Part shown: one piece after another, positions 1-27,569 of the stretch
Numbering within the stretch: the stretch's first letter is position 1
Layout: the number at the start of each line of letters is the position of its first letter
Origin: Schizosaccharomyces osmophilus
Lineage: Eukaryota
Length of the DNA stretch: 64,000 nucleotides
Assembly (NCBI RefSeq): GCF_027921745.1
Contig: NC_079240.1
Coordinates: 1,736,001-1,800,000, forward strand
Direction of reading: 5' to 3'
Notes under the pieces: model-generated
Databases searched by the model: none
What the model was told of the DNA's origin: nothing
What the model saw: only the letters and a program-made list of their open reading frames with translations
Translations under genes and position numbers: made by a program

Positions 1-463
1 AAAGGTGCGCTTGTATGAAATCTTGGAACACAAATGGTATCGAGACATAAATATGCGAGCAATGATAAGATCATTGAATCCTTTTGCAAGGATTATTGGG
101 GAGGTTATACCTGAAGAAGAAATTAGTTTACAAGAAAATGAGCGAGTAATAGTTGTGTATCACTTCCATAAAGATGTCGCTCGAATGCATAGCATTCCTT
201 TCAAATTTGTGATTAAGCCAGGAGAAAAATTTGCTATCACTAGACAGCGGTTGCGTTTCCGAACCATGTACCCTGACAATATTTTTTCAGTAATCAAGTT
301 TGCAATTATTGATTTTGATAGAAATTCCGTTGTGTATTTGAATGATGACGATGTTGTTTTCGAGCTGCTTGAACAATACAATGGCACATTGGCTATGGAT
401 AGAGCTAAAAAAGAAATTAGAAAACCTAAAATTTTAGACCGAGCGATCCAAATGAAAGGTTAG
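1..463 (+). CDS. ubp5: 3' end of USP7-like ubiquitin C-terminal hydrolase (truncated by window edge)
   Basis: Open frame from the window start to TAG at 461-463. Sequence 'VYHFHKDVARMHSIPFKFVIKPGEKF...ILDRAIQMKG' resembles the USP7/Ubp15 C-terminal Ubl region. It lies next to ccq1, as ubp5 does in S. pombe (recall). Confidence 0.8.
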   Translation, partial: KVRLYEILEHKWYRDINMRAMIRSLNPFARIIGEVIPEEEISLQENERVIVVYHFHKDVARMHSIPFKFVIKPGEKFAITRQRLRFRTMYPDNIFSVIKFAIIDFDRNSVVYLNDDDVVFELLEQYNGTLAMDRAKKEIRKPKILDRAIQMKG

Positions 464-731
464 AATATGAAAATAATGCTTTTGTTGTTTGCTGCCTATA
501 TATGAACTTCACATTAATCTCACTTTTCAAGGTATATAAATGCGCTAACTATATAAACAGCTATATTAACGTCTGTCTCATTTATAAAGAAATAAATAAG
601 AATAATGGATTATTACTTTAATGTTAGATATCTCTAATAAGCCTTCTAAATGGGGGATTATTGATTCTAATAATAACTAAATAATAGTTGACAGTCTTAT
701 AATGGTTTATTCGCTCTATGCATTATCTAAT

Positions 732-22161: not shown

Positions 22162-23883
22162 ATGACACGAAGCTATGGCATTTTCATCGACGCTGGTTCG
22201 AGCGGATCACGACTTCAAATCTATTCATGGACGGTTTCTAAAGATAAACAAGACACAAATAAAGGAGCTAGTCTTCCTCTGATTGAACTTGGGGATGGTA
22301 ATGAAGGAGACTGGTCCATCAAGGTACAACCGGGCATATCCTCATTCGCCAGACGGCCAAAGGACGTGGGAGAGAAGCATATAGAAAAGCTACTTGATCA
22401 TGCCGAGAAGGTCATTCCTAAAGACAAGCATAAAAGCACTCCTGTGTTTTTAAGTGCCACAGCTGGTATGCGGCTTTTACCTCCGAAAACACAAAAAAAA
22501 ATATTGAATAATGCTTGTCATTACATAAGAGATGAATACGACTTTGCACTTCCTGATTGTGAATCCATGATTCAGGTTATCGATGGAAAAGCTGAAGGTA
22601 TGTACGGTTGGTTGGCAACGAACTATTTGCTTGGAAATCTTGATTCACCTTCTGGATCTTCAACGGGATTTTTGGATATGGGAGGTGCAAGTGCTCAAAT
22701 TGCCTTTGAAGTTCCCCCTGAAGTACAAAATGAATATGATGATAGCGTTAGCACGGTACTTCTAGGTTTGGATAATGGTAAGCAGATAGGCTATCCTCTA
22801 TTCGTTACAACCTGGCTCGGTTTCGGTACAAGTCAAGCACACAATAGATACTTGAATTCTTTGATTGAAGGAAATCGCGATTCTCCTTCCAAAACCATCG
22901 AAGAACCTTGCTCACTTCGCGGAAGACAATATTCCAAAGATGGACAATCGTTTCTGGGCACGGGAGATTTGGAACTATGCCTAAAACATACGTATACCCT
23001 TCTCAATAAAGAGGCACCCTGCTCACGAGATCCTTGTGGTTTTGACGGCATTTCAATTCCACCGATTGATTTCGTCAACCACGAGTTTGTCGGCGTCTCG
23101 GAATTTTGGTATACGACAAACGATGTATTTGACATGGGCGGAAGCTATCATTTTCCCAACTTTTACCAAAAGGTAGCTGATTACTGCGCTTCCGACTGGG
23201 AATCGATGCTTTCACGCTTACACAATCATCAATTATCTCCATCTACAGATGAAAGCAAGCTAGAAAAGCTTTGTTTTAAAGCTTCTTGGGTCTTAAATTT
23301 TCTGCATGAAGGATTCGGTTTTCCTAAAACTAATACAACTGATATTGACTACCAACAAACGGACGGGCTTGAGGTAATTCCAGCATACCATTCTCACTTC
23401 ACTAGCCTTGAAAAAATTGAACGGACCGAAATAAGCTGGACACTTGGTCAAGTTCTTTTGTACTCATCAAATCAACAATTCCTTCAAGACCCCAAATATG
23501 CGAACTATCAGTTGAATACATTTGGAAAATTAACTCCTTCCAGAGGGTTCTTCCAAAGTAATATGAATGGATATATTTCCTTCATAAGTGTTGTTCTTTT
23601 CTTATCCATCTTTGGCTTTTTGTCCTATTTGTTGACTAGCAACCCTAAGAGAAGGTCAAGGATCAAAAACCTTCTGCTTCGAGTTCGTGGTATGAAGGGT
23701 CGGTATATTGTGAACGCCCATGGAGATTACGAAGATATCGAAGATTTTGAGGATGATATGGAAATGACGAACTTCTCAAAGTCGAAGACTGCTCCTATTC
23801 GCACCACATCTAGCCATATTCTTGCTGATCATTTAGCATTAAATTTTAGTCGAGAGCGAACACCAAGATCTCCTTTACCTTAA
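22162..23883 (+). CDS. ynd1: GDA1/CD39 family nucleoside diphosphatase (apyrase) Ynd1
   Basis: Apyrase conserved regions DAGSSGSR, ATAGMRLL, EGMYGWLATNY, DMGGASAQ, SWTLG, plus a C-terminal transmembrane segment. Confidence 0.92.
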   Translation: MTRSYGIFIDAGSSGSRLQIYSWTVSKDKQDTNKGASLPLIELGDGNEGDWSIKVQPGISSFARRPKDVGEKHIEKLLDHAEKVIPKDKHKSTPVFLSATAGMRLLPPKTQKKILNNACHYIRDEYDFALPDCESMIQVIDGKAEGMYGWLATNYLLGNLDSPSGSSTGFLDMGGASAQIAFEVPPEVQNEYDDSVSTVLLGLDNGKQIGYPLFVTTWLGFGTSQAHNRYLNSLIEGNRDSPSKTIEEPCSLRGRQYSKDGQSFLGTGDLELCLKHTYTLLNKEAPCSRDPCGFDGISIPPIDFVNHEFVGVSEFWYTTNDVFDMGGSYHFPNFYQKVADYCASDWESMLSRLHNHQLSPSTDESKLEKLCFKASWVLNFLHEGFGFPKTNTTDIDYQQTDGLEVIPAYHSHFTSLEKIERTEISWTLGQVLLYSSNQQFLQDPKYANYQLNTFGKLTPSRGFFQSNMNGYISFISVVLFLSIFGFLSYLLTSNPKRRSRIKNLLLRVRGMKGRYIVNAHGDYEDIEDFEDDMEMTNFSKSKTAPIRTTSSHILADHLALNFSRERTPRSPLP

Positions 23884-24439
23884 TCTGTTCCTACCTTTGC
23901 TGCCGGCCATAAACATTCTTCCTTATTCATCCTTCATTTTAAAAAATCCGTAATACGTGCTTGCTCTACCCTGCCGACTATACATAAAGGCACTTATTCT
24001 CTTCCGTTCTTTCCACTTATTTGGCCTGTGTTTATTTATTTAATTCCTCTTCTATTTCGATAATTCTCTAATATATCATGTTTAATGCTGTCTTTTTGAA
24101 TATGATATATGTTGGATACGTTTCGATTTTTCTTTTAACACTCTCCTAATTAGCTGTGATTGTCGGCTGCATTTGAGTAGTATCTAATTGTAAATTTTTG
24201 TTTTGTCTTTAATATTATATATATTAATTTTACTCTATTTTGCTTACCTTGTATCTCCTAATTATTTTCCAATAGTTTTTAAGACATCGCTTTTTCGAGA
24301 CTTTTTTTTTTTTTTTTTCTATACGGCCTAGCCCAAAAAATAACTAAAACATATAAATGAAGAAAAAATTCGTGTTCCCTTGATACCTTAGGCCCAGGGA
24401 AGAGGACAAACAAAATAAACAGAAACAAGTCATTAAATT

Positions 24440-26210
24440 ATGGGAATTCCCGGGTTATGGGACGAATTTCGAGATTGCTTTCGTGAATCAAGTATGTCAA
24501 GTTCACCTGAGAAGAATAGGAAGTTAATTTTTTTAAGATCTTATAGAAGTCTCCACGAGTTGCTGGAATGCAGAAAAACGCTGTTTGAGAATTGCTGTTG
24601 ATGCAGCAATATGGTCGGTACAGATTCAAGCTAGTCAAGGTGGTACCAATCCGGCATTAAGGACGCTATTTTATCGACTTTGTCATTTACTCGAATGGGG
24701 TATTCACGCTATCTTCGTCTTCGATGGTCCAAACAAACCTCCTTGGAAACGAAATCGCCATGTTCGACCGAAAGTCTCAGGAAACTATGAATCGATGAAG
24801 CATCTCATCCAGCTTTTTGGAATGCAAGTATGGGAAGCTCCAGGAGAAGCTGAAGCTGAGTGCGCGAAGCTTCAAAGGTTGCAACTGGTCGATTACGTCT
24901 TGACGGAAGATGTTGATGCTTTCGCTTTCGGAGCTACTAAAGTTATACGATGTAGTCCTGCGGAAAGGAAATCGTTGTTGAATGTCAGAATCTATGAAAT
25001 GGAAAAAATTTCCCAAAAACTCGACATCAATCAGCCTGGTGTTATATTGATTGGCTTGATGAGAGGAGGTGATTACCATTCAAAAGGTATAGAGCATTGT
25101 GGCCTTCAAACAGCGATCGGTGCTGCAAAACTAGGATTCGGTGATCGTTTAATTTCTTCTGATCATCTAGATACCTGGAGGTCTCAATTACAACACTGCA
25201 TTCAAGTAAATAAGTACAACACTTTTGGCTTCAAACGCCCAAATTTCATCATCGACCAGGATTTTCCTGACCCTTTAGTAAAACATTATTATACACATCC
25301 AGAAGTTTCTTCCAAAGAAACGTTGAAATTACACTTTTCGCAGTTTGATTGGTCTCAAAAACCTGATGTTAAAGCTTTGTATACTTATGCTCAAAAACGA
25401 TTTCAATGGGTGAGCCTACAAGGAAGTATCAAGTTTATAAATAACATAGCTTATCCTTTACTTGTCTTTGAACTTCTTCATTCTACTGTTATAGACTCAA
25501 ATATATACACAGCCTCTCATAAGACACGAAGAAACAAATCCACAGGCATGATATTAGAAAAACAAATTACTTTCTATCCAAACAAAATCCTGGATTGCGA
25601 ATGGCATATTAAAACGAACGTACATGATAATGAAGCAAATGCACCGTTAAAGAATCAATGGAAATCACTATTAGAAGAGAACACATCATGGATCCCTGCC
25701 TGCTTTATAAAAACTGCTAAATATGCAAGAATTTCTCAGTTTTTTGGAAGAACAAATTCTGACTTGGGACGTTTAGTCCAAAAAACCAAGAGACTATCTT
25801 TGGACCCAGAAGAAAGTCGTAATTCCATCCATGCCGAGAGGGAAAAAACAACAGTTACTAAAAAGCCAGCAGGTCTTCTTCCAACAAACTTGTTTTCGAA
25901 ACCACGCACACAATTTTCTCAAATAATACCGCAAACTACCGATGATTCTTTTACGGATGATGATCTACCAAAAATTCAGGAGATTCTTCCTAGAAGCTCT
26001 ATAAAAACAGGAAATAGAGAAGATCAAAGCCAACCCGATAGTCGTTTTAACAAAGATCTGACAGTTAAATCCAAAGGGCATCTTTCGAAAGATCAATTCA
26101 TAAAAAAAATATACATTAGAGAAAGCCTTAATGGAAGCTGGAAAGAAGATATAGGAGCAAGCGGGAGGAGGAAAATGTATGAAAATATCCCCATTATTGA
26201 CTTATCCTGA
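24440..26210 (+). CDS. XPG/Rad2-family nuclease of the GEN1/Yen1 (Holliday junction resolvase) type, about 571 aa; exons 24440-24491 and 24547-26210 (alternative in-phase acceptor at 24537)
   Basis: Exon 1 MGIPGLW is the canonical XPG-N start; GTATGT donor at 24492, TAG acceptor at 24546, in phase. Motifs LRIAVDAAIW, GGTNPALRTLFYRL, FVFDGPNKPPWKR, APGEAEAECA, EDVD, H2TH LMRGGDY..GI..CG..A..AAKLGFG and FPD....YYTHPEVS. These match fungal GEN1-type proteins as I recall them. Confidence 0.88.
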
Positions 26211-26258
26211 GATAAATATTTTATGTGAAACGACGTACGATTTATAATGGTTGAGTTC

Positions 26259-27569
26259 TTAAGACTTCAGAAAAAACTGTAACTGATGCAACAACTTCAT
26301 CCATTTAACGCGTATCCGATTCTGACTTGAAGGATTACCTTCTTTTTTGCTATTTATTATGAAAGAAATCTCTTGAATTAGCATCTCCTTCTGTCTCTCA
26401 TTTTCTTTTGCCGACAATAATTTTTGAGAATGCAGCAAATGCTTCATCCATCTCTGACAAACTCTTTCTACTAAACCCGTCTTTTTTTTCTTTTTATAAA
26501 ATGCAATAACCTTTTGGTATATCTTCTGATAAGGAACTCGATCTCTGTTTAATAGATAATACATTCGAGAATATATATCTGGATAGCTATTGTTGGTAAT
26601 ACCGGCTGCAGATTTAAATTGGGGAGCAGCCGTCGACCAATAAATTATGTAGCACCATGCTAATTCAGAAAAACGGATCTTGTAAGTTTCTGATAGTTCC
26701 TTGCATAAATCAACGGCAGCTGGTATATCACCAAGGAATCCAAAAGCACTGGCGACCGAAAGGACAGTATGCGAAGTAGGGTATGAGGAATGATTTCTAT
26801 CAATCAAACACTCTCCTGATTTCCCTTGACCTATACCCCAAACCCTTTTGAGTAGATCGCGGATTTCCTCAATTTTTCCATCTCTTGCTAGTCCGACAAT
26901 AAGATAGTCATAAGTTGTGGAATTCGGAGCGAACCCGTTTCTTGGAAAATCGACATCTACTGCTTCTAGCATTGCAGTCGATACTGGCTCTTGGGTAGGG
27001 CTTCCCTTCCAGGCGGGACTACTAAATTTATTCAATGACCATCTGGACCCTCCATAATTTCCCAAGACACAATTCAAATAATTCAAAGTTGGGTGTATTT
27101 CGTTCTTTTTCACGGTTGTGATCACTTTATCAGCGATGGGCTCGTGTCCAATATACATAGCAATTCGTAGAATATGGGTAAAATCTCCAATGTTAAGTTG
27201 TATTCCCAGTTCATTAGCATCGTGAAGAAGTAAGTCTAGTATCTTTACAGTGGTTTTTTTTTCTCTTTCAGTCAATCTATTCCCACTGTCGAATAGCTTA
27301 AACGAACGAAGAATCAGCTGAAACTCGACAGGCTTCAACTCATTAAGACTATTGTTATTACGAAGTTTTAGGTAATTCAAAAGATATAATGAAGGAGTCA
27401 ATGGCCGAAGAAAGGTTTGTATAGGACCTGTAACAGCAGACTTGAACTTTTGGTCATCTGCATTATGCAACAGTTCCTCAAAAGAACGGACATGTAAACG
27501 TCGGACCAAAGTTAAAGGGGATAATGCTTCAAATTTTAAATTTGTATAAAGAAATCTTAACATTCGCAT
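26259..27569 (-). CDS. ppr6: Mitochondrial PPR-repeat protein (Ppr6-like); probable start ATG 27569
   Basis: Basic N-terminal presequence-like MRMLRFLY...VRRLH and PPR-like repeats (PNSTTYDYLIVGLARDGKIEEIRDLLKRVWG; PTSHTVLSVASAFG). Position next to mug1 agrees with S. pombe synteny (recall). Confidence 0.7.
   Translation of the reverse strand: MRMLRFLYTNLKFEALSPLTLVRRLHVRSFEELLHNADDQKFKSAVTGPIQTFLRPLTPSLYLLNYLKLRNNNSLNELKPVEFQLILRSFKLFDSGNRLTEREKKTTVKILDLLLHDANELGIQLNIGDFTHILRIAMYIGHEPIADKVITTVKKNEIHPTLNYLNCVLGNYGGSRWSLNKFSSPAWKGSPTQEPVSTAMLEAVDVDFPRNGFAPNSTTYDYLIVGLARDGKIEEIRDLLKRVWGIGQGKSGECLIDRNHSSYPTSHTVLSVASAFGFLGDIPAAVDLCKELSETYKIRFSELAWCYIIYWSTAAPQFKSAAGITNNSYPDIYSRMYYLLNRDRVPYQKIYQKVIAFYKKKKKTGLVERVCQRWMKHLLHSQKLLSAKENERQKEMLIQEISFIINSKKEGNPSSQNRIRVKWMKLLHQLQFFLKS

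Follow-up and report, generated by a model that had tools for sequence, protein, structure and literature searches.

GEN1/Yen1 is missing from Schizosaccharomyces pombe, which serves as the standard case of a eukaryote lacking this enzyme. GEN1 has been described as lost in "fission yeasts" (PMC2908289), and a 2019 paper reported the loss of Yen1 from all Taphrinomycotina (PMC7145719). Reviews use its absence from S. pombe to argue which recombination intermediates matter (PMC3057012). The enzymes themselves are well described. For Chaetomium thermophilum GEN1 (CtGEN1), seven metal-binding acids have been named (PMC4270448; PMC4695337), and the segment that replaces the helical arch is given as 12 residues in CtGEN1 versus 39 in FEN1 (PMC4695337). 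Yen1 is described as a backup for Mus81 (PMC4695337), and human GEN1 is reported to rescue meiosis of S. pombe mus81Δ cells (PMC2847240).

Here we analyze SOMG_04827, a gene of Schizosaccharomyces osmophilus within a 64,000-nucleotide stretch of DNA (the window, whose numbering is used throughout). We consider it probable that this gene is an intact, vertically inherited GEN1/Yen1 ortholog whose loss was likely confined to the S. pombe branch, and that it likely encodes a two-metal, 5′-side structure-specific nuclease backing up Mus81-Eme1.

Gene structure and splicing

SOMG_04827 at 24440..26210 (+) is an intact, two-exon gene, and its spliced product of 574 amino acids is letter-for-letter NCBI protein WBW75569.1. 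The coordinates published for it (chr3 1760440-1762210; PMC10085805) correspond to window positions 24440-26210, with the same offset as for its neighbor ynd1. The features of the locus are as follows:

22162..23883, + strand: ynd1 (SOMG_04826), upstream neighbor and synteny anchor
24328..24439, + strand: likely 5′ UTR; spliced contigs start at 24328 (run X3) and 24364 (run X4), and contigs cannot fix the true start
24440..24491, + strand: exon 1, 52 bases, encoding residues 1-17 and the first base of codon 18 (MGIPGLWDEF...)
24492..24537, + strand: intron, 46 nt, with a GTATGT donor, a branch-like TTAAT at 24524 and an AAG acceptor
24538..26210, + strand: exon 2, residues 18-574 and the stop codon (26208-26210)
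26259..27569, − strand: ppr6 (SOMG_04828), downstream convergent neighbor and synteny anchor, with its stop 48 bases from the GEN1 stop

Exon 1 aligns with CtGEN1 from residue 1 and encodes a native Met-Gly-Ile N terminus. From 24537, a stop-free frame of 557 codons extends to the stop codon at 26208-26210, and four acceptors (24537, 24546, 24549 and 24573) give an open, in-frame product. The initial annotation had spliced exon 1 at 24440 in phase onto the long reading frame with no internal stop, and the spliced contigs of runs X3 and X4 bear this out. Its intron of 24492-24546 and product of 571 amino acids need correction: in both runs the contigs lack 24492-24537 (GT..AG), so that the proposed intron end was 9 nt off and the protein 3 residues short. 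The TAG acceptor at 24546 is therefore rejected in favor of 24537, with the proviso that contigs are blind to minor use of alternative acceptors.

The 46-nt intron is missing in two of four runs over the region 24200-26400; runs X2, X3 and X4 are one sample, which may be the origin of the DNA analyzed here, and their records give no library type. Run X2 contains the region as a single unspliced piece, and no X5 contig covers 24200-26400. The X3 and X4 contigs, which start 112 and 76 bases 5′ of the ATG and are free of the intron, would fit a cDNA origin. Taken as cDNA, they fit a real, intact gene that is expressed in spliced form. Run X4 carries three one-base deletions and one substitution that are absent from X2 and X3, and its deletion at 26102, in a coding A run, is likely a sequencing error. 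One X3 contig of 3315 bases continues from spliced GEN1 onward into ppr6; it does not demonstrate a single transcript, but suggests that the 3′ ends of the two genes overlap.

Assignment to the GEN1 family

In a sequence search against solved structures, SOMG_04827 matched CtGEN1 first (E 1.2e-68, residues 1-336), and because of this value over that length a chance match is excluded. Rad2 (1.1e-22), XPG (9e-18), FEN1 (1e-16), human GEN1 (1.4e-13) and human EXO1 (0.004) ranked lower, such that the similarity to CtGEN1 exceeds that to Rad2, XPG, FEN1 and EXO1 by more than 40 orders of magnitude. GEN1-type clusters also ranked first in a whole-protein Atlas search. Pfam XPG_N (26.2 bits, cut-off 22) spans residues 1-92 and XPG_I (77.7 bits, cut-off 24.9) residues 112-196. 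The two regions thus lie close together, as had been noted from the sequence alone, without the long spacer of XPG/Rad13. Pfam XPG_I_2, of the Asteroid/Ast1 family, scored 17.2 bits, below its cut-off of 24.2.

An AlphaFold model built from a 16-row alignment had a mean pLDDT of 70.9, with most values between 75 and 95 up to residue 330 and values below 50 for residues 411-538. Compared with the PDB, it matched CtGEN1 at Z 41.5-42.6 (rmsd 2.6, 390 of 407 residues), with model residues 2-419 superposed on CtGEN1 2..464, chromodomain included; since the input alignment consisted of fungal GEN1s, this match is not independent of the sequence comparison. The remaining PDB entries reached Z 28.5 at most, and among the top twelve only GEN1 chains extended beyond residue 333. 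Taken together, we regard SOMG_04827 as almost certainly a GEN1 ortholog, a member of class IV of the Rad2/XPG nucleases.

The homolog set used below comprises the 120 listed of 2080 matches, 118 of them from outside the fission yeasts. Among 106 columns that are near-invariant in the listed homologs, 82 are kept in both S. osmophilus and Schizosaccharomyces cryophilus and 24 are changed in one or both.

The nuclease core

Two features of the core were located by alignment:

24600..25073, + strand: seven catalytic acids, D39, D80, E121, E123, D142, D144 and D196 (alignment with CtGEN1)
24618..24620, + strand: V45, at the site of the DNA-stacking wedge residue, F44 of CtGEN1 (alignment with the listed homologs)

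The counterparts of the seven acids in CtGEN1 are D38, D79, E120, E122, D141, D143 and D199, and none of the seven varies among the 118 listed homologs or in S. cryophilus. The motifs AVD, FDG, EAEAE, EDVD and GGDY, on which the initial annotation had relied, are present at residues 37, 79, 121, 141 and 194. Because the distance from D80 to E121 is 41, equal to that from D79 to E120 in CtGEN1 (range 40-46 in the 118 listed homologs), the protein lacks both the arch of FEN1 and the spacer of XPG. It keeps the basic residues K88/R89 of the arch, and its H2TH motif region, GGDY-G-CG, matches CtGEN1 in the alignment.

The wedge residue is valine in S. osmophilus and S. cryophilus, versus phenylalanine or tyrosine in all 118 listed fungal homologs; the GEN1s of Taphrina, Pneumocystis and Lipomyces have F or Y. 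In Yen1, the F47E mutation is reported to be null-like, and human GEN1, with C36 at this position, is active (PMC5039027). As the human residue is a cysteine, an aromatic wedge is not a defining feature of GEN1.

Chromodomain, predicted disordered region and C terminus

Three features lie 3′ of the core:

25497..25748, + strand: diverged chromodomain, about residues 338-421, with conserved W402 (custom profile and model)
25716..25820, + strand: conserved block, residues 411-445 (89% identity with S. cryophilus); its RLSL-P motif recurs in S. japonicus
26100..26207, + strand: C-terminal motif, residues 539-574, R-x-S-L-x-G-x-W ... I-I-D-L-S, common to fungal GEN1s

The chromo-like block proposed in the initial annotation found partial support. 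Pfam GEN1_C did not match the S. osmophilus protein at E<=10, nor did it match the S. cryophilus and S. japonicus proteins. However, a custom profile of fungal GEN1s, made from 117 of the 118 listed homologs, scored 11.0 and 15.0 bits in S. osmophilus and S. cryophilus, with none of 1000 shuffles as high for either protein, and W402 is tryptophan in 116 of the 118. Residues 330-430, folded alone from the single sequence, gave a pLDDT of 48 and a best match of Z 4.7 among 48,161 chains. A homolog search with residues 325-574 alone recovered just the two close proteins.

Within the part predicted to be disordered, S. osmophilus, S. cryophilus and S. japonicus share conserved blocks at 25716-25820 and about 25940-25990, with the motif T-x-R-L-S-L-x-P and an acidic, D-rich stretch preceding L-P. 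It is possible that these blocks are kinase or partner sites. A loose PIP-like pattern 3′ of the chromodomain matched 70 of 113 listed homologs, and it also caught chromodomain residues.

The last 36 residues scored higher against the fungal GEN1 C-terminal motif than all of 1000 shuffles, and a D-L/M-T/S motif terminates 89 of the 102 long listed homologs. The C-terminal I-P-I-I-D-L-S resembles the consensus of SUMO-interacting motifs and is predicted to be a motif of this kind. The S. cryophilus ortholog is 76% identical and has the same motifs, with identity peaking at both termini; the genome mean between the two species is given as 87% (Jia et al., PMC10085805), above the value for GEN1.

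CDK sites and control of expression

S. osmophilus and S. cryophilus GEN1 have one S/T-P site each, in different places, and the S. osmophilus protein has no full CDK site; the median is 4 full sites in the 102 long listed homologs. Relative to the composition of each protein, the depletion of S/T-P was not significant (P 0.11 for S. osmophilus and 0.13 for S. cryophilus). In the partial protein of S. japonicus there are 4 S/T-P, 2 of them full CDK sites. Because a motif scan found no FLEX or MCB sites upstream of SOMG_04827, and DSR-like hexamers (3 in 2.07 kb) occur at the background rate of the window, meiosis-specific control is unsupported.

Presence in fission yeasts and loss in S. pombe

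According to the supplement of PMC10085805, orthogroup OG-4484 has the pattern 1:0:1:1:1, with SOMG_04827, no S. pombe member, SOCG_02876, SPOG_02474 and SJAG_03675. In that supplement, mus81, eme1 and slx1 each form 1:1:1:1:1 orthogroups, found in all five species. GEN1 would thus be additional to Mus81-Eme1 and not a replacement for it. The asl1 gene presumably exists in S. pombe. As asl1 is also entered as 1:0:1:1:1, a zero in the orthogroup table may be an artefact, and we therefore examined synteny.

From the published gene numbering, the order in the four other species is ynd1-GEN1-ppr6, and in S. pombe ynd1 (SPCC11E10.05c) adjoins ppr6 (.04). The published coordinates place the midpoints of ynd1 and gpi8 6984, 6950, 6982 and 6958 bp apart in the four species versus 5981 bp in S. 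pombe, and the three neighboring intervals of S. pombe exceed their S. osmophilus counterparts by 68-133 bp each. The S. pombe ynd1-gpi8 interval is 1.0 kb shorter, compared with a gene of 1.77 kb; because the shortfall is smaller than the gene, a GEN1 relic may lie in this interval. In these sources S. pombe thus has no 1:1 ortholog, in line with the initial annotation. The loss likely maps to the S. pombe branch, after its split from the S. octosporus clade.

For S. japonicus, a search of the full library returned EEB08518.2 (P0172), named "rad2," as the best non-self match (E 2.4e-79, residues 104-573), and its best solved relative is CtGEN1. This protein of 469 amino acids starts at the equivalent of M104 and is without the XPG-N half. 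The start is probably wrong, with a gene model that misses 5′ exons, the alternative being that the gene is truly truncated. The locus tag SJAG_03675 comes from the published table. The S. octosporus protein was absent from our four homolog searches, three of which covered forms of up to about 1000 aa, and its ortholog rests on the published table; the search of shorter forms returned no named Schizosaccharomyces protein among the 50 matches listed. As a separate observation, Table S10 of Jia et al. lists slx4 only in groups of one species each (S. pombe and S. japonicus), with no named S. osmophilus gene, a grouping that probably reflects fast divergence and possibly loss.

Homologs in Taphrinomycotina

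Four of ten early-branching matches that were looked up have species names: S. japonicus, Taphrina deformans, Pneumocystis oryctolagi and Lipomyces japonicus. The T. deformans and P. oryctolagi GEN1s pass Pfam GEN1_C, and that of L. japonicus is just below the cut-off. The T. deformans (P0266), P. oryctolagi (P0187) and L. japonicus (P0260) homologs bear generic names. Together with the OG-4484 pattern and the ynd1-ppr6 synteny, these homologs support a lineage-specific loss in S. pombe, as first suggested from the S. osmophilus sequence.

In a tree of the nuclease part with 25 rows, chosen by hand from 311 stored proteins and with long partial sequences as basidiomycete outgroups, the three Schizosaccharomyces sequences cluster with one another (100/98) and lie outside the clade of Pezizomycotina (100/98). 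The Taphrinomycotina do not form one clade in this tree, as Lipomyces and unnamed rows fall among them, and the deep order is unsettled. A second, divergent GEN1-like lineage (P0147, P0149 and P0171, one of which is from Alternaria dauci) lies outside the canonical ascomycete GEN1s.

Discussion

If SOMG_04827 is a GEN1 ortholog, why has the family been considered absent from these fungi? In the survey of Milo et al., all 11 of 11 Taphrinomycotina, T. deformans included, are NO_HIT. The method has the S. cerevisiae gene in its row and applies a 25% identity cut, which is a likely cause of false negatives. Judged from the sequences of S. osmophilus, its sister species, Taphrina and Pneumocystis, the reported losses from "fission yeasts" (PMC2908289) and from all Taphrinomycotina (PMC7145719) are contradicted. 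The gene model and the orthogroup without S. pombe are already in a 2023 supplementary table, under generic nuclease names (PMC10085805); "GEN1" and "Yen1" have no occurrence in the text of that paper or in the portion of its supplement consulted. Outside subscription papers, we found none that names the sister-species genes GEN1, also when searching by the four locus tags, and the name is absent from the main texts of a 2026 paper on gene gain and loss and of an orthogroup-resource preprint. The assignment may already be present in web databases such as JaponicusDB.

The generic names raise the question of whether the gene could instead be a duplicated or mislabelled paralog of FEN1, XPG, EXO1 or Ast1, since databases call these genes "flap structure-specific endonuclease" and "DNA repair endonuclease rad2," and NCBIfam matches SOMG_04827 only to rad2 and fen_arch, both far below their cut-offs. 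We consider this highly improbable. S. osmophilus has rad2 (SOMG_02421), rad13 (SOMG_01180), exo1 (SOMG_02596) and ast1 (SOMG_04286) elsewhere, each in its own 1:1:1:1:1 orthogroup, and SOMG_04827 has neither the 39-residue arch nor the XPG spacer, shares a chromodomain and C-terminal motif with fungal GEN1s, and is closer to CtGEN1 by the wide lead in E value (1.2e-68, versus 1.1e-22 for Rad2 and 0.004 for EXO1). The proposal in the initial annotation of GEN1 rather than FEN1/Rad2 or Exo1 is thus upheld by sequence and fold ranking and by the separate paralog orthogroups; an outgroup scan of prokaryotic genomes gave no match, and our trees are therefore without FEN1, XPG and EXO1 rows. Horizontal transfer from filamentous ascomycetes into the Schizosaccharomyces ancestor would fit the 11 NO_HIT Taphrinomycotina of Milo et al., and the best named matches beyond the genus, among the matches listed, are from Pezizomycotina. 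But T. deformans and P. oryctolagi carry GEN1 with GEN1_C above the cut-off, and the Pezizomycotina clade (100/98) leaves out the fission-yeast sequences. Transfer is thus already largely refuted and in our estimate has hardly any chance of being correct; the simplest account is vertical inheritance, with the gene later lost in S. pombe.

A more serious alternative concerns activity. The ortholog could have junction resolution that is weakened, or redirected to flaps or stalled forks, in a family that is on its way out of the fission yeasts, with the loss in S. pombe as the end point. Such decay could account for valine at the wedge, the changes at 24 of 106 near-invariant columns of the listed homologs, the long branch leading to the fission-yeast clade, the chromodomain below the Pfam cut-off, a divergence faster than the reported genome mean (76% versus 87% identity to S. 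cryophilus) and the truncated S. japonicus record. Against it, the seven acids, K88/R89, W402 and the C-terminal motif are all kept, human GEN1 is active with its cysteine wedge, and the gene has persisted at one locus across fission-yeast splits dated to 207, 108 and 29 million years ago (Jia et al., PMC10085805). We find decay unlikely on balance, and judge that there is a good chance that SOMG_04827 is an active backup resolvase.

How might such a backup resolvase work? By analogy with CtGEN1, two metals in the acid pocket would cleave the phosphodiester bond immediately 3′ to the branch point, with the H2TH motif binding the cleaved arm, the wedge helices splitting the junction and the chromodomain binding the uncleaved arm. 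As for the Chaetomium, human and budding-yeast enzymes, two monomers could meet on a four-way junction and nick opposite strands symmetrically. The enzyme may have a late backup role beside Mus81-Eme1, as Yen1 does in budding yeast, and from homology we infer that S. osmophilus could have a second resolvase pathway. Recruitment might occur through the predicted C-terminal SUMO-interacting motif, and control is predicted to operate without CDK inhibition of the Yen1 type. It is also conceivable, though we hold this only tentatively and think it rather doubtful, that the non-pombe fission yeasts have a compact GEN1 freed of CDK inhibition, a natural Yen1-ON enzyme that is recruited by its C-terminal SUMO-binding motif and produces crossovers in meiosis alongside Mus81. 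If so, the Mus81-only meiosis of S. pombe would be a derived state that arose from one gene loss and could be reversed by returning the gene of a sister species.

Given how well this enzyme family and its chemistry are understood, these findings correct the literature and offer an opening for experiments, rather than describe a new kind of system. With a native enzyme and cultivable sister species, it should be possible to ask whether total reliance on Mus81-Eme1 led to the loss of GEN1 or followed from it, and how the timing of GEN1 is set when CDK sites are few or missing.

Comparison with known GEN1/Yen1 enzymes

SOMG_04827 most resembles CtGEN1 (PDB 5CO8, 5CNQ and 6GRB-D), with which it shares a core that begins at residue 1, the seven acids, the short arch segment, the wedge and H2TH motifs, and the position of the chromodomain. 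It differs in having V45 in place of F44, a shorter insert in the chromodomain and a short tail without an S/T-P site. It is also smaller than other fungal homologs (574 amino acids, compared with a median of 893 for the 118 listed). S. cerevisiae Yen1, of which our alignments contain no sequence, belongs to the same family and is reported to use C-terminal SUMO-interacting motifs (PMC8986097), and S. osmophilus has the predicted motif at its C terminus. However, Yen1 has 759 amino acids and, according to PMC8754655, nine CDK-site serines that keep it off until anaphase, compared with the single S/T-P site of S. osmophilus. Human GEN1 (PDB 5T9J) aligns over 356 residues of core and chromodomain (Z 28.5) and likewise has a non-aromatic wedge residue (C36), but it is only ~20% identical, has 908 amino acids and is described as containing a nuclear export signal.
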